Below, in pieces: positions 1 to 28,335 of a stretch of 28,335 bases of DNA (within the stretch, counting starts at the first letter, position 1; each line of letters begins with the position of its first letter). Location: the IMG/VR virus record IMGVR_UViG_2737471849_000009. One strand, 5' to 3'. Source of the stretch: a virus. Taxonomy: Duplodnaviria > Heunggongvirae > Uroviricota > Caudoviricetes. The notes beneath the pieces are model-generated. The model made no database searches. It saw only the letters and a list, made by a program, of their open reading frames with translations, and had not been told where the DNA came from. Both the position numbers and the translations under genes were made by a program.

Positions 1-74
1 CCCGTAACGCCTCTGCCACGCGCGTAACGTGACAGGGATTAAAGGTAAACCAATTGATTTTGCAAGTTTTTATT

Positions 75-1361
75 TTACCCCGCTTTCTTATGGGGCATGC
101 ATGGGACACTTTCAGATAGTCTTCTGTTAAGAAGTTCTATTTGTTCGTGATTGTTGTCTTTCATCCATGCTCCGTAAACATTGAATACCATTTGTGCGTT
201 TGTGTGGCCCATCTGGCTCGCGATAAAACTAGGATTAGCTCCTGCGGCAAGTGACCAGCATGCATAGGTATGCCTGGATTGATACGATTTTCTGTGTCTC
301 AGACCTGCGCGTTTTAAGATACTTGTCCATGACTCCCTGATGGAGTCAACCTTATAGTGCGGTCCGGAAAACTGCCGTTGTTTTATTACCTGAGGACTAA
401 AAACAAAAGTGCATTTATGCACAGTACTTCTCCCATATTCCCTCTGCTTTACCTCTACAGAATGCTGTTTTCCAAGCATGGTCATTTCCGCTTGGCTTTT
501 AAGAGCATCAATAGCTGGTTGAACTAGATGAATCGTTCTTCCGGTACCAGCATCAGTTTTTGGTGGAGTGAATTCGCCTAGTTTTGTATAATTCCGGCGG
601 ATGGTTATAGTCCTCGCTTTAAGGTCTATATCTTCCCAGGCCAGTGATACCAGCTCCCCGTGACGAATACCCGTGTATACAGCGATAATCCACAGGTTTT
701 TTGTTTGTTGATGACGGCAAGCCTCAATAAAACGAATAAATTCGTCACGGGTGAGGGGATCTGGTTCTATCTTGGACTTTTTTAATGGTGTCAGACCGTT
801 AAATGGATTTCCTGATGTATAACCATTATCTGTTGCAAATTGAAACATTCCAGCTATGGTTGTCATATAGTAGTTTACTGTGACCACTGAGCGTCCTTTT
901 ATGGAAGAAATTTTTCCGTTAGAAAGCTTTTGATAACCGGTCAACAGATCTCTCCTTACGAAAAGCAAATCCTCTTTTGTTACAGATGAAACCAGTCTTT
1001 TTTCACCTAACATTGGCAACATGTTTTTAATTACTGACTGGTAACGGTTAAGTGCATTTGCACAAATCTCTATTTTCTTCAGTTCAAGCCATCTTTCCGA
1101 AAGTGCTTTAATGGTTATCTCTCTTTTCCCCAGACCAAAGTGTTTCAGGTTAGGGGACTCAGGGAACTGTGCTGCATAGTCGAAACTCCCCATTCTGATT
1201 GCAAAACAAACGGAAGTGCGGAGGTCACCTGCGATTTTCCGGTTTTTGGCGGTGTCAGGAACACCGAGGTTTTCTCTGACACGTTTGCCGTTATAGTGAA
1301 ACCATATGCGGAGTGATCCGCCATGATTTTCAACGCCTGTTGGGTATGATGTATTACTCAT
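75..1361 (-). CDS. int: Phage integrase, tyrosine recombinase (Rac IntR-like)
   Basis: 428-aa ORF with C-terminal catalytic signature (IRHGELVSLAWEDIDL; RHTYACWSLAAGANPSFIASQMGH; NVYGAW) and N-terminal arm-binding-like segment (GSLRIWFHYNGKRVRENLG); recalled similarity to E. coli Rac-type integrases; terminal position next to an excisionase-like gene. Confidence 0.9.
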   Translation of the reverse strand: MSNTSYPTGVENHGGSLRIWFHYNGKRVRENLGVPDTAKNRKIAGDLRTSVCFAIRMGSFDYAAQFPESPNLKHFGLGKREITIKALSERWLELKKIEICANALNRYQSVIKNMLPMLGEKRLVSSVTKEDLLFVRRDLLTGYQKLSNGKISSIKGRSVVTVNYYMTTIAGMFQFATDNGYTSGNPFNGLTPLKKSKIEPDPLTRDEFIRFIEACRHQQTKNLWIIAVYTGIRHGELVSLAWEDIDLKARTITIRRNYTKLGEFTPPKTDAGTGRTIHLVQPAIDALKSQAEMTMLGKQHSVEVKQREYGRSTVHKCTFVFSPQVIKQRQFSGPHYKVDSIRESWTSILKRAGLRHRKSYQSRHTYACWSLAAGANPSFIASQMGHTNAQMVFNVYGAWMKDNNHEQIELLNRRLSESVPCMPHKKAG

Positions 1362-1394: not shown

Positions 1395-1649
1395 TTAACC
1401 GGAACTTGCATTTTTAACACCTGGTTGTTTCTGATTTTCGATCCAGCGCATAATTTCCTCTATGTTGTATACGCATTCACTGTTGCTCTTCGGAATTCCA
1501 TCGACAGCGTAATGTCGATATTCTTTCCCCTGTAGCCATGATTTTTTCCTGGCTCGCTCAATGGTGCCTGGTTTTAGCCCTGTCGAAGCAATGAGGGTGC
1601 TTTCTGTACACCATTTACTTGGTGTTATTTGATAGATGATTGTCTGCAT
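1395..1649 (-). CDS. xis: Excisionase-like small DNA-binding protein
   Basis: 84-aa basic ORF immediately upstream of and co-oriented with int; size and position typical of a lambdoid Xis; family assignment by position, not by a recognised motif. Confidence 0.55.
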   Translation of the reverse strand: MQTIIYQITPSKWCTESTLIASTGLKPGTIERARKKSWLQGKEYRHYAVDGIPKSNSECVYNIEEIMRWIENQKQPGVKNASSG

Positions 1650-15577: not shown

Positions 15578-15928
15578 ATGCCATCACAAATCCCTCGTGC
15601 ATGCCGTAAGCGAGGCTGTGCAGGCACAACGACGGACAGTTCGGGCTACTGCGATAAGCATCGCGGCGAAGGTTGGACACAACATCAACGCGGACTGAGC
15701 CGCCACCAGCGTGGCTATGGCTCGAAATGGGATGCCATACGTGCGCGCATACTGAAGCGTGATAATCATTTGTGTCAGAACTGCCTGCGCAATGGGAGAG
15801 CCGTTGAAGCCAGAACTGTGGACCACATCATTCCGAAAGCGCATGGCGGTACGGATGCAGACGGTAATCTGCAGAGCCTGTGCTGGCCATGCCACAAGGA
15901 GAAAACAGCGCGTGAACGCATCAACTGA
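15578..15928 (+). CDS. HNH endonuclease (terminase-associated type)
   Basis: 116 aa from ATG 15578 with GAGGAG Shine-Dalgarno; HNH motif DHIIPKAHGGTDADGNLQSLCWPCHKEKT; cysteine pairs CRKRGC and CQNC; directly upstream of terS. Confidence 0.8.
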   Translation: MPSQIPRACRKRGCAGTTTDSSGYCDKHRGEGWTQHQRGLSRHQRGYGSKWDAIRARILKRDNHLCQNCLRNGRAVEARTVDHIIPKAHGGTDADGNLQSLCWPCHKEKTARERIN

Positions 15929-16076
15929 TAATCGTTCTCATCTGTAAGGGAGGGGCGGGTCAAATCTCTGCAACCCTGGCTGCTCAGTACCGCCGCCTGA
16001 CCCTTCCTCACATCGCCGCAGGTTCGAAAACTTTTTTTTGGAAATGTGAACAAACGATTGATAGGTAAGACCGATT

Positions 16077-16559
16077 ATGTCAGGACCTCCGAAAACCCCG
16101 CCAGGCCTGCATTTGATACGAGGCAACCCCTCAAAGCGTCCCGTTAAAGACCACAAAAAAACCGCTAAAAAGGATGAAAAAGGTCTTCCTAAAATTCCGC
16201 AGCATTTAGGGGCTCAGGGGAAGTACTGGTTCAGGCGAATGGCGGAAGAGCTGAATGCGGAAGGGATCATTTCTCAGCTTGATGCACGTGCGCTCGAGTT
16301 GCTGGTGGAAGCCTACACCGAATATCGGCATCACTGCGAAACACTCGATGTTGAGGGGTATACTTACCGCACGGAAACGCAGAGCGGTGATGTACTGATT
16401 AAGGCGCACCCCGCGGCGGCAATGAAAGCGGATGCCTGGAAGCGGATCCGGGCAATGCTTGCAGAGTTTGGTATGTCACCGGCAAGCCGGGCTAAAGTAA
16501 ATATCGCCGGACCGGATGATGTTGATCCGCTGGCGGAGCTTTTAAAAGCGAGAGACTGA
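16077..16559 (+). CDS. Terminase small subunit (P27-family-like)
   Basis: 160 aa basic protein directly upstream of and overlapping the large terminase start (TGATGG); position and size. Confidence 0.7.
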   Translation: MSGPPKTPPGLHLIRGNPSKRPVKDHKKTAKKDEKGLPKIPQHLGAQGKYWFRRMAEELNAEGIISQLDARALELLVEAYTEYRHHCETLDVEGYTYRTETQSGDVLIKAHPAAAMKADAWKRIRAMLAEFGMSPASRAKVNIAGPDDVDPLAELLKARD

Positions 16560-18316
16560 TGGCAAAAGTGGCTGACGGGATCCGCTACGCCGAACGTGTT
16601 GTTGCAGGAGAAATTGTTGCTGGCGAATTTGTCCGCCTGGCCTGCCAGCGTTTTCTTGATGATCTGAAGTACGGCGAAGAGCGGGGGATTTATTTCAGTG
16701 AACCCCGTGCGCAGCACATCCTGAATTTCTACAAATTTGTGCCTCATGTAAAAGGGGCGCTGGCAGGCCAGCCCATTGAGTTGATGGACTGGCATGTATT
16801 TATCCTCATTAATATTTTTGGTTTTGTCATTCCGCTGGTCAATGAAGAGACCGGGGAAGTTGTCATGCGCAGCGATGGCAGCGGACGTCCGGTGATGGTG
16901 CGCCGGTTCCGGACGGCGTACAACGAAGTCGCCCGTAAAAACGCAAAATCAACTCTGTCATCGGGTATCGGCCTGTATATGACGGGGGCAGATGGTGAAG
17001 GCGGAGCTGAGGTGTATTCAGCCGCAACCACGCGTGACCAGGCCAGAATCGTGTTTGAAGACGCCAAAAATATGGTCAGAAAAGCCCGGTCGACACTCGG
17101 GCGGTTGTTTGATTTCAACAAGCTGGCGATTTACCAGGAGCAGAGCGCATCAAAATTTGAACCGCTTTCTTCGGATGCAAACAACCTGGATGGTCTGAAC
17201 ATTCACTGCGCCATTATTGATGAGCTGCATGCACATAAAACCCGTGACGTGTGGGACGTTCTGGAAACGGCAACCGGTGCTCGTCTGCAGTCCCTTTTAT
17301 TTGGTATCACCACGGCAGGGTTTAACAAGGAAGGGATTTGTTACGAGCAGCGTGATTACGCCATCAAGGTATTGCGTGGCTATAACAGCGACGTGGAGGG
17401 CGCGGTAAAAGACGACTCCTACTTTGCGATTATTTACACCCTCGATGAGGGAGATGATCCGTTTGATGAAACGGTCTGGCAGAAAGCGAATCCCGGCCTG
17501 GGCATCTGTAAACGCTGGGATGATCTGCGTCGCTTGGCGAAAAAAGCGAAAGAACAGGTCTCTGCACGGGTGAATTTTTTTACCAAACACATGAATGTGT
17601 GGGTAACAGCAGAGTCTGCCTGGATGGACATGATTAAGTGGGAGAAGTGCGAATACATTGCCCCACGACATGAGCTGAAAACGTATCCCATGTGGGTCGG
17701 CGTTGACCTTGCTCATAAGATTGATATCTGTGCGGCGGCAAAACTCTGGCGAACGGATAACGGGCATGTTCATGCCGATTTTAAATTCTGGCTTCCGGAA
17801 GGACGGCTGGAACGATGCTCGCGGCAGCAGGCAGAACTTTACCGGAAGTGGGCGGAGATGGATAAGCTGATTCTGACGGATGGTGATGTTATCGATCATG
17901 CTCAGATAAAAAGTGACTTACTGGAATGGATTGGTGGTGAAAACCTCAGGGAACTGGGATTTGACCCGTGGAGCGCGATGCAGTTCAGCCTGGCACTGGC
18001 TGAAGAAGGGATACCGCTGGTGGAGGTTCCGCAGACGGTTCGCAATCTGTCAGAGGCCATGAAGGAAACGGAATCACTGGTCTATGCCGGGCGTTTCCAT
18101 CACAGCAATCATCCGGTCATGAACTGGATGATGTCTAACGTTACGGTAAAACCGGACAAAAACGACAATATCTTCCCGAATAAATCCACGCTGGAAGCCA
18201 AAATCGACGGTCCTGTTGCGATGTTTACAGCAATGAGCCGGATGCTGGTCAATGGCGGTGAACCGGAGCCGGATCTGTCTGAGCATCTGGTCAGCGTTGG
18301 TATCCGCTCGCTTTAA
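16559..18316 (+). CDS. Terminase large subunit
   Basis: 585 aa; N-terminal ATPase region and C-terminal nuclease-like region with conserved acidic residues ([15 protein letters not shown]); downstream of HNH and TerS. Confidence 0.9.
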
Positions 18317-18510: not shown

Positions 18511-18737
18511 TGTTTTTCCAGGGGCTTTTTCAACGTAAAAATAATACCCCCGTCACAACGCCCGGGATGCTTGCGGAAGAACTTGGGTTGTCATACGACA
18601 CCTATACCGGACTGCAACCTGTATTTTCAGAGGATGATCGTGAACAGGTGATTGCCGTGTATGGCCCGGTGCATGCGCGGCTTCTTCGGCAGTCTCTGGA
18701 ACTGATCAGTGATGCCGGCGAGGTTAAAAAAAAGTAG
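18510..18737 (+). CDS. Tail assembly chaperone G-like (short; possibly truncated)
   Basis: 75-aa ORF ending in the slippery run GTT AAA AAA AAG TAG, directly upstream of a T-domain ORF in the -1 frame. Confidence 0.5.
   Translation: MFFQGLFQRKNNTPVTTPGMLAEELGLSYDTYTGLQPVFSEDDREQVIAVYGPVHARLLRQSLELISDAGEVKKK
18728..18734 (+). other. Candidate -1 programmed ribosomal frameshift heptamer A_AAA_AAG
   Basis: X_XXY_YYZ heptamer in the G frame 1 codon before the stop; the -1 frame opens at 18728 and is continuous with ORF 18749..19039. Confidence 0.55.
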
Positions 18738-18748
18738 CGCTTCCGGGG

Positions 18749-19039
18749 ATGCGTTTTCTGATGATGCTGGCACTCAGGATGGGGCGCACATTGTCAGAGT
18801 TACGCCGGGAAATGTCCGCATCAGAAATCATGATGTGGGCAGAATTTGACAGGTTCAGCCCGCTGGGGGACGAACGGGCTGATATCCGGGCTGCCCAGAT
18901 TGTTTCAGCTGTTTACGGTGCGCAGGGTGTCAAAGTACCACTGAATGATGCGCTTCTTCAGTGGGAGCATGAATCAGAAGAAAATAAATGCGATGATCCA
19001 TTTATTGGATTAGAGGTTGCTCTAATGTCTTCACTATAA
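18749..19039 (+). CDS. Tail assembly chaperone T domain (expected as a G-T fusion via -1 frameshift)
   Basis: 96-aa ORF (MRFLMMLALRMGRTLSELRREMSASEIMMWAEFDRFSPLGDERADIRAAQIVSAVYGAQGVKVPL) resembling recalled minor tail protein T sequences; frame is -1 relative to G. Confidence 0.6.
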   Translation: MRFLMMLALRMGRTLSELRREMSASEIMMWAEFDRFSPLGDERADIRAAQIVSAVYGAQGVKVPLNDALLQWEHESEENKCDDPFIGLEVALMSSL

Positions 19040-19097
19040 GATAATTTTTTAATCGTTTTGAAATTGAATGCTTTACTCAAAGTCAGGAGGATTAATC

Positions 19098-19439
19098 ATG
19101 AGAAAATCAGTGGTGACATTAGCTTGTTTGTTTTTTATTAGTGCATGTAAGCCATCAGATAATTATGTTATTTCTTTAGGGGAAAACTTAGTTAAAGATA
19201 AGCTTATTGATCCTGATAGTGCAAAATTTAATTCTTTTTTTCATAAGTCAGGTGATTTATATGGTTATGTTTGTGGTGATGTTAATTCAAAAAACACGTT
19301 TGGTGGATATACAGGGAAAAAGCCATATTTTGTTTATTTGGAAGTTGTGGATGGAAAAGTTAAGAGTCATGGGACTGTAACAATTGTTAATGATCATGAT
19401 CCAAGCAGTATGGAAAAATATAAGTTGTTTTGCCAATAA
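19098..19439 (+). CDS. AT-rich moron lipoprotein (113 aa)
   Basis: ATG 19098 with AGGAGG Shine-Dalgarno; signal peptide with lipobox ISAC; markedly AT-rich codons compared with flanking tail genes; own terminator downstream. Confidence 0.6.
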   Translation: MRKSVVTLACLFFISACKPSDNYVISLGENLVKDKLIDPDSAKFNSFFHKSGDLYGYVCGDVNSKNTFGGYTGKKPYFVYLEVVDGKVKSHGTVTIVNDHDPSSMEKYKLFCQ

Positions 19440-19449
19440 TTATCATCTT

Positions 19450-19475
19450 AAAAAACCGCAGAAGCGGTTTTTTTA
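19450..19475 (+). terminator. Intrinsic terminator after the moron lipoprotein gene (bidirectional shape)
   Basis: A5-CCGC-agaa-GCGG-T7 hairpin 11 nt after the lipoprotein stop and 14 nt before the tape measure start. Confidence 0.55.
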
Positions 19476-19488
19476 TGGGGTAAAGTAA

Positions 19489-22400
19489 ATGGCGACATTA
19501 CGTGAGCTGATTATTAAAATCTCGGCAAATTCCCGGTCATTCCAGTCAGAGATCTCCCGGGCTTCGCGTATGGGGCAGGATTACTACCGTACCATGCAGA
19601 ACGGAGGCCGGCAGTCCGCTGCTGCATCCCGTGAAATGCGGCGTGCACTGGCAGAAGTGACGGATCAGATAAATACAGCTAAATCTTCGGCACTGAATAT
19701 GGCGGGGGCATTTGCCGGGGCTTTTGCTACCGGTCATCTTATTTCTCTCGCCGATGAGTGGAATTCAGTAAATGCCCGTCTGAAGCAGGCCTCACAGTCC
19801 ACTGATGATTTTCAGGTATCACAACGTGAATTAATGGCAATCAGCCAGAGAACGGGAACGGCGTTTTCTGATAACGCCAGCCTTTTTGCCCGCTCTGCAG
19901 CTTCCATGCGGGAGTATGGCTACAGTTCTGAGGAGGTACTGAAAGTCACCGAGGCTATCTCCACGGGCCTGAAATTATCCGGTGCCAGTGCAGCAGAAGC
20001 CAGTTCGGTGATCACGCAGTTCAGTCAGGCACTGGCGCAGGGAGTGCTGCGCGGTGAAGAATTTAACTCTGTGAATGAGAACGGCGATCGTGTTATTCGT
20101 GCGCTGGCTGCGGGAATGGGTGTTGCCCGTAAGGATCTGAAGGCCATGGCGGATAACGGAAAGTTGACCGCCGATAAGGTTGTTCCTGCACTGATTAGTC
20201 AGCTTGGGGCGTTGCGTGATGAATATGCAGCAATGCCTGATACGGTTTCATCCTCTGCAACCAAAGTTGAAAACGCCTTTATGGCCTGGGTTGGTGGTGC
20301 GAACGAAGCAAGCGGAGTGACGAAGACGCTCTCCGGTGTGCTGAATGGTATTGCAGGCAATATTGACACTGTGGCAACCGCTGCCGGTGCTCTGGTTGCC
20401 GTCGGGGTAGCCCGATATTTTGGCAATATGGCATCTTCTGCTGGATCTGCAACTGCCGGATTAATTACTGCAGCCAGAAACGAAGTAGCTCTTGCGGAAG
20501 CGCAGCTCCGGGGGACGCAGATAGCAACCGCCAGGGCGCGTGCGGCGGTTTATCGTGCGCAACAGGCGGTCGCGGCTACCCGTGGTACTGAAAGACAGGC
20601 AGCCGCAGAAGCGAAACTGGCTGCTGCCCAGGCATCACTTACCCGTAATATTGCGGCCAGAACAGCAGCACAGACAACGCTGAATACTGTCACGTCAGTG
20701 GGGAGTCGTTTATTAAGTGGTGCGCTGGGGCTGGTTGGTGGTGTGCCGGGACTCGTCATGCTGGGGGCGACGGCCTGGTACACGATGTATCAGAATCAGG
20801 AGCAGGCCAGAGAATCTGCACGCCAGTATGCCGCAACAATCGACGAAATTCGCCAGAAAACGTCGGCAATGTCGCTTCCTGAAGCGTCAGATAATGAGGA
20901 AAAGACGCGGCAGGCACTGGAGGAACAAAATCGCCTGATTAACGAACAGGAAGGAAAAATTCGCGGACTGAAAAATCAAATTGCTGATTATCAACGTTGG
21001 CTTGATGAAAGTTCGCAGAGTGGTTCTGGTGCTGAAATCATCCTTAAAGGGCTTGCAGAAGCAACAAATCAACTGGCAGTTGAACAGTCCCGTCTCACAC
21101 AAATGCAGGGCAAAGCGCAATCCATTCAGGATGTGCTTGCCGGGCTGGAGGAGCGACGAGTGGCGTTGATCCGTCAACAGGCAGCGGAACAAAACAAAGC
21201 GTATCAGTCCCTGTTGATCATGAATGGGAAGCATACCGAGTTTAATCGCCTTCTCGGGCTTGGTAATGAATTACTTCAGCAGCGACAGGGGCTGGTGAAT
21301 GTACCGTTACGGCTACCACAGGCAACTCTGGATGATAAACAGCAGACCGCACTGAATAACAGCAAGCGCGAACTGGCTCTGTCCCGCCTTAAGGGGGAAG
21401 CGCGTGAGCGTGCCCGACTGGGCTATGCTGCGGATGATCTCGGCTTTGTGGGAGAGGCGTATCGGACAGCCAGACAGAATTATATCAATAACTCACTGGA
21501 TGCCTGGCGAAATAACCAGGCAAATAAACCCAAAGCGCATAAAAAGACCGAAGCGGAAAAAACAGAAGATATTTATAAACGGCTGATTAAACAGCAAAAA
21601 GAACAGATAGCACTGGCAGGGCAGAATACTGAACTGGCTAAGATGAAATATCAGGTCAGTCAGGGCGAATTATCAACCCTGTCAGAAGCGCAGAAAAAAA
21701 CGCTTTTGCAGAATGCAGCACTCATCGACCAGAAAAAGATTCGTGAGCAGCTTGCCGCGTATGAAAGCAGTCTGGCGGACAGTAATGCCAGTGCCCGGGC
21801 ATCTGACGACGCGCAGTTGCTGGGATATGGTGAAGGCTCACGGATGCGTGAACGACTCCAGGAAATGTGGAGTATCCGGCATGAGTTTGAGCAGAAAAAT
21901 AACGAGCTGCTGAGACAGTATCAGGCCGGAGAAATTGAAGAAGCCCTGTGGAAACAGGAGAAAGAACTGAATAAAAAATATCTGGAAGAGCGTCTCAGCG
22001 ATCAGCAGGATTATTATGCAAAGGCCGATGCTTTACGTAATAACTGGAATGCCGGACTCCAGGAGGGACTGACCAACTGGGCAGACAGTGCCACCGATTA
22101 TGCTTCACAGGCGGCAGATGCTGTTGTTTCCACGATGGACGGGCTGGTATCAAATATTTCCGATGCACTGGCCGGGAATGTTGTGGAGTGGAGGAACTGG
22201 GGGAGTTCAGTTCTCCGGGAAGTTTCAAAAATTCTGATGAATGCGGCCATTGTTAACGGACTGAAGTCACTCTCCGGTGCCGGAGGGTGGCTTGGTACGG
22301 TCGGCGGATGGATTTCGGGGGCGGTGGCAAACGCAAAAGGTGGTGTTTACACATCGGCAAATCTGAGTGCTTACAGTAACACTATTGTGGATACACCGAC

Positions 22401-22689
22401 GTATTTTGCTTTTGCGAAAGGTGCCGGGCTGATGGGCGAGGCCGGGCCTGAAGCTATCATGCCACTGACACGGGCAGCGGACGGCTCTCTTGGGGTCAGA
22501 GCCATTGGCAATGTGAATGGTGGCGGTGGATTTGTTTATTCTCCCGTGTATCACATTAGCATTCAGAATCAAGGGAGCAATGGCGAGATAGATACGCGCT
22601 CAGCCAGGGGACTGGTGGATCTGATCGACAGCAGGGTTGTGTCAATTATGCAGTCATCGCGTCGGGATGGAGGATTATACAGTGCCTGA
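19489..22689 (+). CDS. H: Tail tape measure protein
   Basis: 1066 aa, Ala/Gln-rich coiled-coil protein; C-terminal segments (NWADSATDYASQAADAV ... RRDGGLYSA) parallel lambda gpH; followed by M, L, K, I, J. Confidence 0.9.
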   Translation: MATLRELIIKISANSRSFQSEISRASRMGQDYYRTMQNGGRQSAAASREMRRALAEVTDQINTAKSSALNMAGAFAGAFATGHLISLADEWNSVNARLKQASQSTDDFQVSQRELMAISQRTGTAFSDNASLFARSAASMREYGYSSEEVLKVTEAISTGLKLSGASAAEASSVITQFSQALAQGVLRGEEFNSVNENGDRVIRALAAGMGVARKDLKAMADNGKLTADKVVPALISQLGALRDEYAAMPDTVSSSATKVENAFMAWVGGANEASGVTKTLSGVLNGIAGNIDTVATAAGALVAVGVARYFGNMASSAGSATAGLITAARNEVALAEAQLRGTQIATARARAAVYRAQQAVAATRGTERQAAAEAKLAAAQASLTRNIAARTAAQTTLNTVTSVGSRLLSGALGLVGGVPGLVMLGATAWYTMYQNQEQARESARQYAATIDEIRQKTSAMSLPEASDNEEKTRQALEEQNRLINEQEGKIRGLKNQIADYQRWLDESSQSGSGAEIILKGLAEATNQLAVEQSRLTQMQGKAQSIQDVLAGLEERRVALIRQQAAEQNKAYQSLLIMNGKHTEFNRLLGLGNELLQQRQGLVNVPLRLPQATLDDKQQTALNNSKRELALSRLKGEARERARLGYAADDLGFVGEAYRTARQNYINNSLDAWRNNQANKPKAHKKTEAEKTEDIYKRLIKQQKEQIALAGQNTELAKMKYQVSQGELSTLSEAQKKTLLQNAALIDQKKIREQLAAYESSLADSNASARASDDAQLLGYGEGSRMRERLQEMWSIRHEFEQKNNELLRQYQAGEIEEALWKQEKELNKKYLEERLSDQQDYYAKADALRNNWNAGLQEGLTNWADSATDYASQAADAVVSTMDGLVSNISDALAGNVVEWRNWGSSVLREVSKILMNAAIVNGLKSLSGAGGWLGTVGGWISGAVANAKGGVYTSANLSAYSNTIVDTPTYFAFAKGAGLMGEAGPEAIMPLTRAADGSLGVRAIGNVNGGGGFVYSPVYHISIQNQGSNGEIDTRSARGLVDLIDSRVVSIMQSSRRDGGLYSA

Positions 22690-23023
22690 GCCTGAAGTTT
22701 TTAACTGGATCCCCCGTGAGGGGATGGAGACGACACGAAAGCCATCAGTTATTACGGTAAAGTTTGGTGACGGATATGAACAGCGACGGGCTGGTGGGCT
22801 GAATGCGGATCTGAAAACGTTTAAACCGGTATTTCGTGTCACAGATGAATACTCCCGTGCCGCGCTGGACAGTTTTTTATCCCGTCATGCCGGGATTCGT
22901 GCTTTTTTGTGGCGCCCGCCAAAACACAACAGGACTGTCCGGGTTGTCTGCAGGGAGTGGAGCATTTCGGATAATGCCATGTATACCGATTTTAACTGTA
23001 CCTTTGAAGAGGTCACTCACTGA
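22667..23023 (+). CDS. M: Minor tail protein M
   Basis: 118 aa from ATG 22667 (overlaps the end of H); KFGDGYEQRRAGGLNADLKTFKPVF matches lambda gpM RFGDGYSQRAPAGLNANLKTY. Confidence 0.8.
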   Translation: MEDYTVPEPEVFNWIPREGMETTRKPSVITVKFGDGYEQRRAGGLNADLKTFKPVFRVTDEYSRAALDSFLSRHAGIRAFLWRPPKHNRTVRVVCREWSISDNAMYTDFNCTFEEVTH

Positions 23024-23721
23024 TGCAGGATATACAGCAGGAAACACTCAATGAGTGCACTAAAACGGAGCAATCCGCGCTGGTCGTGCTCTGGGAAATT
23101 GATCTGACAGAGGTCGGCGGAGATCGTTACTTTTTCTGCAATGAGCAGAACGAAAAAGGTGAACCAGTCACCTGGCAGGGGCGGCAGTATCAGGCCTATC
23201 CCATTCAGGGAAGTGGATTTGAGATGAACGGCAAAGGAGCCAGTGCAAGGCCAACGCTGAAAGTCTCTAATCTGCACGGCATGGTCACCGGGATGGCGGA
23301 AGACCTGCAGAGTCTGGTCGGCGGAACGGTGGTCCGGCGTAAGGTTTACGCCCGTTTTCTGGATGCGGTGAACTTCGTCAACGGAAACAGTGACGCCGAT
23401 CCGGAGCAGGAGGTGATCAGCCGCTGGCGCATCGAGCAGTGCAGCGAACTGAGCGCGGTGAGTGCCTCCTTTGTACTGTCCACGCCGACGGAAACGGATG
23501 GCGCTGTTTTTCCGGGGCGTATCATGCTGGCCAACACCTGCACCTGGACCTATCGCGGTGATGAGTGCGGTTATCACGGTCCGGCAGTCGCGGATGAATA
23601 TGACCAGCTGACGTCCGATACCACGAAAGATAAATGCAGCAAATGCCTGAGTGGCTGTAAGTTTCGCAATAACGTCGGCAACTTTGGCGGCTTCCTTTCC
23701 ATTAACAAACTTTCGCAGTAA
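23023..23721 (+). CDS. L: Minor tail protein L
   Basis: 232 aa, near-identical by recall to lambda gpL over its whole length (MQDIQQETLNECTKTEQSALVVLWEIDLTEVGG ... CSKCLSGCKFRNNVGNFGGFLSINKLSQ). Confidence 0.9.
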   Translation: MQDIQQETLNECTKTEQSALVVLWEIDLTEVGGDRYFFCNEQNEKGEPVTWQGRQYQAYPIQGSGFEMNGKGASARPTLKVSNLHGMVTGMAEDLQSLVGGTVVRRKVYARFLDAVNFVNGNSDADPEQEVISRWRIEQCSELSAVSASFVLSTPTETDGAVFPGRIMLANTCTWTYRGDECGYHGPAVADEYDQLTSDTTKDKCSKCLSGCKFRNNVGNFGGFLSINKLSQ

Positions 23722-23725
23722 ACCC

Positions 23726-24469
23726 ATGACAGAAACAGAATCAGCGATTCTGGCGCACGCCCGGCGATGTGCGCCAGCGGAGTCGTGCGGCTTCGTGGTG
23801 AGAGCGCCGGAGGGGGAAAGATATTTTCCCTGCATGAATATTTCCGGTGAGCCGGAGGGTTATTTCCGGATGTCGCCGGAAGACTGGCTGCAGGCAGAAA
23901 TGCAGGGTGAGATTGTGGCGCTGGTCCACAGCCACCCCGGTGGTCTGCCCTGGCTGAGTGAGGCCGACCGGCGGCTGCAGGTGCAGAGTGATTTGCCGTG
24001 GTGGCTGGTCTGCCTGGGCGTGATTCACAAGTTCCGCTGTGTGCCGTATCTCACCGGGCGGCGCTTTGAGCACGGAGTGACGGACTGTTACACGCTGTTC
24101 CGGGACGCTTACCATCTGGCGGGAATTGAGATGCCGGATTTTCACCGCGAGGATGACTGGTGGCGTCACGGTCAGAATCTCTATCTTGACAATATGGAGG
24201 CAACGGGTTTTTACCGTGTCGCACTGACAGAGGCGCAGCCGGGCGACGTGCTGCTGTGCAGCTTTGGTTCATCGGTGCCGAATCATGCTGCCATTTACTG
24301 CGGCGACGGCGAGCTGCTGCACCATATTCCTGAACAACTGAGTAAACGAGAGAGGTACACCGACAAATGGCAGCGACGCACACACTCCCTCTGGCGTCAC
24401 CGGGCATGGCACGCATCTGCCTTTACGGGGATTTGCAACGATTTGGCCGCCGCATTGACCTTCGTGTGA
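23726..24469 (+). CDS. K: Tail assembly protein K (JAB/MPN plus NlpC/P60-like)
   Basis: 247 aa from ATG 23726; MTETESAILAHARRCAPAESCGFVV ... HSHPGG (JAMM-like) ... NHAAIYCGDGELLHHI closely parallels lambda gpK. Confidence 0.85.
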   Translation: MTETESAILAHARRCAPAESCGFVVRAPEGERYFPCMNISGEPEGYFRMSPEDWLQAEMQGEIVALVHSHPGGLPWLSEADRRLQVQSDLPWWLVCLGVIHKFRCVPYLTGRRFEHGVTDCYTLFRDAYHLAGIEMPDFHREDDWWRHGQNLYLDNMEATGFYRVALTEAQPGDVLLCSFGSSVPNHAAIYCGDGELLHHIPEQLSKRERYTDKWQRRTHSLWRHRAWHASAFTGICNDLAAALTFV

Positions 24470-25014
24470 AAACGGGGGCTGAAGCCATCCGGGCGCTGGC
24501 CACACAGCTCCCGGCGTTTCGTCAGAAACTGAGCGATGGCTGGTATCAGATACGGATTGCCGGGCGTGATACAGGTGAAAACGAATTATCAGCCCGTCTG
24601 AATGAGCCGCTGGAAAATGGTGCCGTGATCCACATCGTACCGCGTCTGGCGGGTGCTAAAAGTGGCGGTATTTTTCAGGCAGTGCTGGGGGCGGCGCTGA
24701 TTGCGGTTGCATGGTGGAACCCTGTGGGCTGGCTGGGGGCCGCGGCTGTATCGGGTATGTATGCGGCAGGGGCCAGTATGATCCTGGGCGGTGTGGCGCA
24801 GATGCTGGCCCCCAAACCCAGAACCCCCCGAACACAGACAACGGATAACGGTAAGCAGAACACCTATTTCTCCTCACTGGATAACATGGTTGCCCAGGGC
24901 AATGTTCTGCCTGTTCTGTACGGTGAAATGCGCGTGGGGTCACGCGTGGTTTCTCAGGAGATCAGCACGGCAGACGAAGGGGACGGTGGTCAGGTTGTGG
25001 TGATTGGTCGCTGA
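24367..25014 (+). CDS. I: Tail assembly protein I
   Basis: 215 aa; N- and C-terminal regions (MAATHTLPLASPGMARICLYGDLQRFGRRIDLRVKTGAEAIRALATQLPAFRQKLSDGWYQ ... KQNTYFSSLDNMVAQGNVLPVLYGEMRVGSRVVSQEISTADEGDGGQVVVIGR) match lambda gpI. Confidence 0.85.
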   Translation: MAATHTLPLASPGMARICLYGDLQRFGRRIDLRVKTGAEAIRALATQLPAFRQKLSDGWYQIRIAGRDTGENELSARLNEPLENGAVIHIVPRLAGAKSGGIFQAVLGAALIAVAWWNPVGWLGAAAVSGMYAAGASMILGGVAQMLAPKPRTPRTQTTDNGKQNTYFSSLDNMVAQGNVLPVLYGEMRVGSRVVSQEISTADEGDGGQVVVIGR

Positions 25015-25033
25015 TGCAAAATGTTTTATGTGA

Positions 25034-25060
25034 AACCGCCTCAGGGCGGTTTTGTCGTTT
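25034..25060 (+). terminator. Hairpin with short T-tract between I and J (possible attenuator)
   Basis: AACCGCC-tcag-GGCGGTT followed by TTTTG; sits between the I stop and the J start. Confidence 0.35.
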
Positions 25061-25074
25061 ATGGAGCGTGAGGA

Positions 25075-28000
25075 ATGGGTAAAGGCAGCAGTAAGGGGCA
25101 TACCCCGCGCGAAGCGAAGGACAACCTGAAGTCCACGCAGCTGCTGAGTGTGATCGATGCCATCAGCGAAGGGCCGGTTGAAGGTCCGGTGGATGGATTA
25201 AAAAGCGTGCTGCTGAACAGTACACCTGTGCTGGACAGTGAGGGGAATACCAATATCTCCGGCGTCACGGTGGTGTTCCGGGCCGGTGAGCAGGAGCAGA
25301 CACCGCCGGAGGGGTTTGAATCCTCCGGCTCCGAGACGGTGCTGGGTACGGAAGTGAAATATGACACGCCGATCACCCGCACCATTACGTCTGCAAACAT
25401 CGACCGTCTGCGCTTTACCTTCGGTGTACAGGCACTGGTGGAAACCACCTCAAAGGGTGACAGGAATCCGTCGGAAGTCCGCCTGCTGGTTCAGATACAA
25501 CGTAACGGTGGCTGGGTGACGGAAAAAGACATCACCATTAAGGGCAAAACCACCTCGCAGTATCTGGCCTCGGTGGTGGTGGGTAACCTGCCGCCGCGCC
25601 CGTTCAACATCCGGATGCGCAGGATGACGCCGGACAGCACCACAGACCAGCTGCAGAACAAAACGCTCTGGTCGTCATACACTGAAATCATCGATGTGAA
25701 ACAGTGCTACCCGAACACGGCACTGGTTGGCGTACAGGTGGACTCGGAACAGTTCGGCAGTCAGCAGGTGAGCCGTAATTATCATCTGCGCGGGCGCATT
25801 CTGCAGGTGCCGTCGAACTATAACCCGCAGACGCGGCAATACAGCGGTATCTGGGACGGAACGTTTAAACCGGCATACAGCAACAACATGGCCTGGTGTC
25901 TGTGGGATATGCTGACCCATCCGCGCTACGGCATGGGGAAACGTCTTGGTGCGGCGGATGTGGATAAATGGGCGCTGTATGTCATCGGCCAGTACTGCGA
26001 CCAGTCAGTGCCGGACGGCTTTGGTGGCACGGAGCCGCGCATCACCTGTAATGCGTACCTGACCACACAGCGCAAGGCGTGGGATGTGCTCAGTGATTTC
26101 TGCTCGGCGATGCGCTGTATGCCGGTATGGAACGGGCAGACGCTGACGTTCGTGCAGGACCGACCATCGGATAAGGTGTGGACCTATAACCGCAGTAATG
26201 TGGTTATGCCGGATGATGGTGCGCCGTTCCGCTACAGCTTCAGCGCCCTGAAGGACCGCCATAATGCCGTTGAGGTGAACTGGATTGACCCGGATAACGG
26301 CTGGGAGACAGCGACAGAGCTTGTGGAGGACACGCAGGCCATTGCCCGTTACGGTCGTAATGTTACGAAGATGGATGCCTTTGGCTGTACCAGCCGGGGG
26401 CAGGCACACCGCGCCGGGCTGTGGCTGATTAAAACAGAACTGCTGGAAACGCAGACCGTGGACTTCAGCGTGGGGGCCGAAGGGCTTCGCCATGTGCCGG
26501 GCGATGTCATTGAAATCTGCGATGATGACTATGCCGGTATCAGCACCGGTGGTCGCGTGCTGGCGGTGAACAGCCAGACCCGGACGCTGACGCTCGACCG
26601 TGAAATCACGCTGCCATCCTCCGGTACCACGCTGATAAGCCTGGTTGACGGAAGTGGTAATCCGGTCAGCGTGGAGGTTCAGTCCGTCACCGACGGACTT
26701 AAGGTGAAAGTGAACCGGGTTCCTGACGGCGTTGCAGAATACAGTGTGTGGGGGCTGAAGCTGCCGACGCTGCGCCAGCGCCTGTTCCGCTGCGTGAGTA
26801 TCCGTGAGAACGACGACGGCACGTATGCCATCACCGCCGTGCAGCATGTACCGGAAAAAGAGGCCATCGTGGATAACGGGGCGCACTTTGACGGCGACCA
26901 GAGCGGCACGGTGAATGGTGTCACGCCGCCAGCGGTGCAGCACCTGACCGCCGAAGTCACCGCAGACAGCGGGGAATATCAGGTGCTGGCGCGCTGGGAG
27001 ACGCCGAAGGTGGTGAAGGGGGTGAGCTTCCTGCTTCGCCTGACCGTGGCAGCGGATGACGGCAGTGAGCGGCTGGTCAGCACGGCCCGGACGACGGAAA
27101 CCACATACCGCTTCAGGCAGCTGACGCTGGGGCGTTACAGGCTGACAGTCCGGGCGGTAAATGCGTGGGGACAGCAGGGAGACCCGGCGTCGGTATCGTT
27201 CCGGATTGCCGCACCGGCAGCACCGTCGAGGATTGAGCTGACGCCGGGCTATTTTCAGATAACCGCCACGCCGCATCTTGCCGTTTATGACCCGACGGTA
27301 CAGTTTGAGTTCTGGTTCTCGGAAAAACGGATTGCGGATATCAGGCAGGTTGAAACCACAGCCCGCTATCTTGGCACGGCGCTGTACTGGATAGCTGCCA
27401 GTATCAATATCAGGCCGGGCCATGATTATTATTTTTACGTTCGCAGTGTGAACACCGTTGGCAAATCGGCATTCGTGGAGGCTGTCGGTCGGGCGAGCGA
27501 TGATGCGGAAGGTTACCTGGATTTTTTCAAAGGCAAGATAACCGAATCTCATCTCGGCAAGGAGTTGCTGGAAAAAGTCGACCTGACGGAGGATAACGCC
27601 AGCAGACTGGAGGAGTTTTCGAAAGAGTGGAAGGACGCCAACGATAAGTGGAATGCCATGTGGGCTGTCAAAATTGAGCAGACCAAAGACGGCAAACATT
27701 ATGTCGCGGGACTTGGCCTCAGCATGGAGGATACAGAGGAAGGCAAACTGAGCCAGTTTCTGGTTGCCGCTAACCGTATCGCGTTTATTGACCCGGCAAA
27801 CGGGAATGAAACGCCGATGTTTGTGGCGCAGGGCAATCAGATATTCATGAACGACGTGTTCCTGAAGCGCCTGACGGCCCCCACCATTACCAGCGGCGGC
27901 AATCCCCCGGCCTTTTCCCTGACACCGGACGGAAAGCTGACGGCGAAAAATGCGGATATCAGTGGCAGTGTGAATGCGAACGCCGGGACGCTCAATAATG

Positions 28001-28335
28001 TCACGATTAATGAGAACTGTCAGATTCTGGGAAAACTGTCAGCTATTCAGATTGAAGGCGATATTGTTAAAACGGTGGGTAAGGCTTTCCCCCGTGACTC
28101 CCGGGCACCGGAGCGGTGGCCATCAGGGACCATTACCGTCAGGGTTTATGACGATCAGCCTTTTGACCGGCAAATTGTCATTCCGGCGGTGGCATTCAGC
28201 GGTGCCAGACATGAGAGAGAGCATAATGACATTTATTCATCATGCCGTCTGATAGTGCGGAAAAACGGTGCTGAAATTTATAACCGTACCGCGCTGGATA
28301 ATACGCTGATTTATACCGGTGTGATTGATATGCCA
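25075..28335 (+). CDS. J: Host specificity/central tail fibre protein J (partial; continues beyond window end)
   Basis: Open frame from ATG 25075 to the window edge; N-terminus [54 protein letters not shown] and long internal stretches match lambda gpJ; long minus-strand ORFs here are antisense shadows. Confidence 0.9.

Follow-up and report, generated by a model that had tools for sequence, protein, structure and literature searches.

The left end of the prophage lies almost certainly at positions 17-36/37 of the window (the whole 28,335-nucleotide stretch of DNA analysed here), inside the host gene mlrA (yehV), and with the same high confidence we interpret positions 1-74 as holding attL, in the arrangement B-O-P', of a lambdoid prophage whose insertion point is in the 5' part of Escherichia coli mlrA. 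The original prediction had held that the boundary and attachment site could not be placed. That statement is overturned, as the empty site, the attR of relatives and the annotated attachment sites of known phages all give the same 20/21-bp core. The empty-site comparison that it had proposed, run with K-12 mlrA and with a reconstructed 65-bp site, allows an att core to be recognised within 1-74. The features of the left junction, and the gene cut by the right end of the window, are as follows.

1-16, minus strand: host mlrA (yehV) coding DNA, the B arm of attL (mlrA nt 84-69)
17-37, no strand assigned: att core, the common sequence O, CACGCGCGTAACGTGACAGG(G) (mlrA nt 68-49(48), codons 16/17-23)
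21-27, no strand assigned: proposed 7-bp overlap CGCGTAA, with core-type inverted repeats at 15-20 and 28-33
38-74, no strand assigned: AT-rich, phage-derived, non-coding part of the P' arm, from the core to the int stop codon
75-1361, minus strand: int, heterobivalent tyrosine integrase of 428 aa (open reading frame, Pfam)
90-108, plus strand: candidate arm-type Int sites P'1 ATGGGGCA (90-97) and P'2 ATGGGACA (101-108), 11 bp apart
1395-1649, minus strand: xis, excisionase of 84 aa (open reading frame; Pfam DUF1233 putative excisionase, PF06806, 7e-31)
25075-28335, plus strand: J (tail tip), incomplete, the window ending about 135 bp short of its stop codon (colinear with E21845/O/A)

The left junction and its attachment core

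Positions 1-36 of the window are antisense mlrA coding sequence (mlrA nt 84-49). In K-12 MG1655, the opposite strand of mlrA matches positions 2-36, after which the sequences diverge; the blastn alignment with K-12 mlrA spans 2-42 (9949-9910 of the extracted K-12 segment), and the apparent 26-bp repeat at 17-42, obtained with one gap, was rejected as the 21-bp core plus chance or partial ATTAA similarity. The core at 17-36 is identical to K-12 attB over 20 bp, and in three-way alignments of attL, attB and attR the identity to the commoner mlrA G allele and to attR covers 21 bp (17-37). The difference arises because K-12 has A, not G, in the position after CAGG, a synonymous AAT/AAC change at Asn16. 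On the phage side, matching to the phage-only records BP-4795, Stx2a_1447 and WGPS2 begins at position 17/18; positions 38-74 are common to the phage records and host homology stops at 36/37. In the scheme we propose, the core at 17-36/37 is common to attB, attP, attL and attR, and the DNA from 37/38 on is of phage origin.

A megablast search with positions 1-1400 matched 5392 of the 5426 complete E. coli genomes, but most of the query was covered in only 524 of them, which indicates that the start of the window is core-genome DNA. The top matches all fall under features annotated as mlrA, integrase and excisionase. Joining the left half of attL to the right half of attR gave a 65-bp empty site that the mlrA of many genomes matches at 100% identity, and 4944 of the 5426 have it uninterrupted. 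The G allele is accordingly an attB that occurs in nature, and the repeat is a true 21-bp one.

The far end of the element can be read from relatives. Over positions 1-1400 the window is 99.9% identical to STEC308 and E21845/O/A, in both of which the rest of mlrA continues leftward and the 5' end of mlrA, adjoining btsS, lies on the far side of the prophage. The attR there (...TTGCGT-CACGCGCGTAACGTGACAGGG-TTAATATC...) has exactly window 17-37 in common with attL. In a repeat search of the E21845/O/A locus, two exact direct copies of the 21-mer, separated by 39,223 bp, formed the only repeat family bracketing the element; the 21-mer bounds the far end of the 39.2-kb near-identical prophage in E21845/O/A and likewise that of the 18.5-kb STEC308 remnant. 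Identical sequence, falling on window 17-36/37, is annotated in JLK-2012 (JQ347801) as 'attL' (665-685, 21 bp), in VT1-Sakai (AP000400) as 'attachment site' (55931-55950, 20 bp) and in YYZ-2008 (FJ184280) as 'direct repeat due to prophage insertion' (238-258, 21 bp). For the present copy, attR can be deduced from relatives showing 99.4-100% identity in the shared segments. By analogy with them, the right junction is predicted about 3.8 kb past the window, adjoining a 68-bp mlrA 5' fragment and btsS, and the core copy is expected there beside the mlrA 5' end TTAATATCACAAAGCAACGCC, followed by btsS. The phage record phi330 (vB_EcoS_phi330, PV189401.1) was set aside as an independent attP: at about 575-640 of the extracted segment it carries the 20-bp core twice in tandem (…GCGT-CACGCGCGTAACGTGACAGG-CACGCGCGTAACGTGACAGG-GATTA…), most likely an artefact of circularising a prophage whose two ends both included the repeat.

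Most of what had been read from the window alone holds. The 428-aa integrase frame does end at 75 (stop codon 75-77), and attL, expected within or just outside 1-74, has its core at 17-36/37. It was also right that a direct repeat could not be located from the window, where the core is found once, even at three mismatches, so that attR must lie outside; and that the right end is beyond it, J being incomplete in comparison with E21845/O/A. The absence of tRNA-like sequence was likewise borne out: ARAGORN found no tRNA or tmRNA gene in the whole window and Rfam gave no match in 1-400 (E<=1). An attachment site of the tRNA/tmRNA type was accordingly discarded, the core being in a protein-coding gene.

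Recombination enzymes, proposed overlap and candidate arm-type sites

The predicted integrase combines an N-terminal Arm-DNA-bind_2 domain (PF12167, 1.3e-24) with a Phage_integrase domain (PF00589, 6.5e-18), and RefSeq labels it a tyrosine-type recombinase/integrase. At xis, an excisionase is annotated in all related records. At the nucleotide level int is 94% identical to that of VT1-Sakai, YYZ-2008 and JLK-2012, and the int-xis segment is 93.5-94.4% identical to the phage records of the family and 99.9% identical to mlrA prophages in four genomes. An arm-binding N-terminal domain and a tyrosine-recombinase domain in Int, followed by Xis, therefore point to a lambda-type (B-O-P') organisation of the left junction. 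Int, a tyrosine recombinase of the lambda type whose arm-binding domain is separate, would catalyse integration and excision at the core together with Xis. Strand exchange would take place across the 7-bp overlap at 21-27, between inverted core-type Int sites, with Int anchored to arm-type sites of the form ATGGGRCA at 90-108 in the P' arm and, at the far end of the prophage, in a tandem array of the P arm. Int would thereby bridge core-type and arm-type sites, and excision would depend on Xis.

In lambda-type integrases, the core-type sites are arranged as an inverted repeat around the overlap region. Here, the repeat at 15-20 reads GCCACG in attL and GTCACG in attP, and that at 28-33 reads CGTGAC. 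When attP was reconstructed by joining the P arm from attR to the P' arm from the window, the result, GTCACG-CGCGTAA-CGTGAC, was a perfect 6-bp inverted repeat with a 7-bp spacer, which makes 21-27 the likely place of the strand-exchange overlap. The related Stx2a phage Stx2_EH2201 lends this independent support. Its attL and attR differ at the equivalents of window positions 19 and 28, between which only GCAGTTAA (20-27) is common to both, and the outer CCACG/GTGAC is conserved between its core and the mlrA-site core, with a different centre. These polymorphisms match the pattern that one would expect if strand exchange were confined to those 7-8 bp. The annotated 21-bp 'duplication' of Stx2_EH2201 is itself imperfect (TCCACGCAGTTAATGTGACGG versus GTCATGCAGTTAAAGTGACGG, at 405-425 and 636-656 of the extracted segments), and the opposite-strand translation of its host flank, VTLTAWR, is reminiscent of VTLRAW in MlrA.

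The candidate arm-type sites P'1 and P'2 are embedded in the last codons of int. A k-mer comparison found TGGGGCATG(T/C)ATGGGACA in both arms, at window 91-108 and about 130-150 bp away across the core, a between-arm match of 17/18 bp for which the chance expectation in arms of such size is about 6e-5. In the P arm, a unit of the form ATGGGRCA/RTGGGGYR recurs with an 11-bp period in three copies in E21845, STEC308, Sakai and JLK-2012, and the conservation of this arm among otherwise unrelated phages stops just past the array. In Stx2_EH2201 the P' block keeps 21/22 identical positions, though int is only 79% identical and the flanking int codons diverge. ATGGGRCA units thus stand on both arms, two in P' and three to five in P, and the coding position of the P' copies could partly explain their conservation. 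Counted over the whole window, the motif shows no enrichment (3 found, 2.6 expected), so that only its clustering and conservation are informative. Taken with the arm-binding domain of Int, the cross-arm match, the P-arm array and the conserved P' block make these units good candidates for arm-type sites. If so, the core is inside 1-74 and the functional attL probably reaches beyond 74, the arm-type repeats lying at 90-108 in the 3' end of int. In the P arm of BP-4795 (AJ556162.1) we noted five tandem 11-bp units of the ATGGGGCATCA type, compared with three elsewhere; the candidate array varies in copy number.

Beyond this, a broader proposal drawn from the same sequence comparisons is about as likely as not, namely that the ATGGGRCA units constitute an uncharacterised arm-type code of this integrase family, unchanged in integrases that have diverged to 79% identity and been retargeted to other cores, with copy number possibly tuning integration and excision; read-through from int into mlrA would be a weaker addition to it.

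Other motifs in the arms are less telling. A site resembling the IHF consensus at 12/13 positions lies at 47-59 on the minus strand, where lambda H' would be. Such matches occur in the window at the chance rate (28 found, 27 expected), and this one is suggestive by its position only. The P arm has, between the array and the core, a conserved 10-bp inverted repeat, TCGACGAACT-N7-AGTTCGTCGA, at about -114 to -88 relative to the centre of the core; it is situated outside the window, at 9726-9752 (reverse complement) of the E21845/O/A segment, and a related TCGTCGAT occurs at -33. On neither strand is this inverted repeat followed by a T-run; it could serve as a binding site for a protein, perhaps Xis, or form an RNA-processing hairpin.

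Alternative readings and the state of the prophage and of mlrA

Before the comparisons, the att site might formally have been located to the left of the window, all of 1-74 then being phage DNA, given that the window has one copy of any candidate core. This can now be granted practically no credence: it is refuted by the empty-site comparison, in which 1-36 is contiguous mlrA in thousands of prophage-free genomes, and by phage records that begin only at 17/18 and an attR that shares with the window nothing but 17-37. It is also very improbable that the 20/21-bp repeat is a target-site duplication produced by a transposition-like insertion rather than a pre-existing core of attP and attB. The GenBank wording for related elements, 'direct repeat due to prophage insertion' or 'duplication', would suit such an origin. 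However, what the element encodes is a tyrosine integrase with an excisionase, and no transposase, the identical site is occupied by prophages in about 500 genomes, and the core has the layout of tyrosine-recombinase sites, with inverted repeats and a 7-bp spacer. Moreover, the two copies in Stx2_EH2201 differ at their flanks as in reciprocal exchange between non-identical attP and attB, and the Sakai prophage Sp15 at yehV excises to a circle and replicates on induction (PMC2669165). The comparisons show the attL junction to result from site-specific integration into mlrA of a phage with tyrosine integrase and excisionase genes.

A question of activity rather than of identity, and one compatible with this explanation, is whether attL is rightly placed but belongs to a dead relic that no longer excises. 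In comparison with the E21845/O/A prophage, to which it is 99.4-100% identical, the window is missing 983 bp at 15237/15238, with the M15 endolysin, a complete holin and part of a second one, and about 5.5 kb at 18604-18611, with the portal, protease, capsid, connectors and tail tube through the tail chaperone; the second deletion is joined at an 8-bp microhomology, ATACCGGA. With these two internal deletions the prophage is probably defective in both lysis and head assembly, and this copy may never excise productively. The STEC308 remnant of 18.5 kb at this site, degraded still further, would fit with a loss of mobility. Yet int and xis are full-length frames, the core and candidate arm-type motifs are intact, and defective Sakai prophages, Sp15 at yehV among them, still excise and circularise (PMC2669165), so that we regard a dead relic as a tentative and rather doubtful view of this prophage.

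From 18604 to 28335, the window is colinear, at 99.9% identity, with 23172-13441 of the E21845/O/A segment, where gpJ is annotated at 13306-16701. In the early region, about 215 bp (8393-8609) have no counterpart in the otherwise colinear E21845/O/A prophage; close by, that prophage has an internal repeat of Rha/ash-family genes with a period of 653 bp. In STEC308 (NZ_CP091020.1, segment 1129-19660), the same int-xis-attL module heads an 18.5-kb mosaic remnant in which P2-like genes for tail sheath and tube occur along with pseudogenes, and the mlrA site thus hosts heavily rearranged prophage relics.

As for the host gene, integration splits mlrA after codon 16-23 and detaches the promoter and first 16 codons from the remainder. 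In lysogens, RefSeq/PGAP annotates a 702-bp 'mlrA' encoding a 233-aa 'HTH-type transcriptional regulator MlrA' (WP_029208330.1; lysogen segment 2353-3054). The start codon assigned to this coding sequence is an ATT of phage DNA (window 54-52, minus strand), with IGLPLI- replacing MALYTIGEVALLCDIN-, and the annotation masks the split of the gene by the prophage. A promoter scan and a short-repeat search of positions 1-400 gave nothing relevant, and the accompanying terminator scan found no terminator between the int stop codon and the mlrA remnant. Since int and the promoterless, 5'-truncated remnant are on the same strand and no terminator-like site separates them, int transcription could read into the remnant. 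Prophage insertions in the proximal mlrA coding region have been reported to abolish mlrA expression, curli and biofilm (PMC3874044, PMC5931665).

Relation to known phages and significance

yehV is an established integration site of Stx phages (PMC8065619, PMC8309913), and on every testable feature the attL described here belongs to the yehV-att family of VT1-Sakai (Sp15)/CP-933V of E. coli O157:H7, BP-4795, YYZ-2008 and JLK-2012. It shares with them the host gene, the position within it and an identical 20/21-bp core, as well as int and xis at about 94% nucleotide identity, the spacing between core and int, and the P' arm; among close relatives, the same ATGGGRCA array stands in the P arm. 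In contrast to the Stx phages of the VT1-Sakai type, this prophage has no stx, and none is annotated in the near-identical E21845/O/A prophage. The early and late regions also differ beyond about 2 kb, and the two internal deletions are a further difference. Stx2_EH2201 (LC567829) is a related phage, with an int 79% identical, a nearly identical P arm, the same candidate arm-type block and a homologous core with conserved outer CCACG/GTGAC half-sites, but the central 7-8 bp of its core are different (CAGTTAA versus CGCGTAA here), as is its host target.

The arrangement also resembles that of lambda attL (BOP'; Int, Xis, IHF). In both, the tyrosine integrase is heterobivalent and has an arm-binding domain, int adjoins the P' arm, xis is upstream of int, and core-type inverted repeats surround a 7-bp overlap, here a proposed one; measured from the centre, candidate tandem arm-type repeats fall at about +65 to +85, and in the P arm at about -120 to -150. 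The core and putative arm-type sequences are, however, unrelated to those of lambda, and the arm domain of Int is Pfam Arm-DNA-bind_2. Whereas the attB of lambda is the intergenic gal-bio site, attB here is inside mlrA, which the insertion disrupts.

The att core and the integration site are already known, and little is added to the cited annotations, namely the proposed overlap and arm-type sites, which are modest refinements of a known system with no new biology. The value of the result is for annotation: the left border of the prophage is fixed to the base, with host DNA to position 16, core at 17-36/37 and phage DNA beyond, E. coli is recognised as the host, and the gene disrupted is mlrA, the regulator of curli and biofilm.
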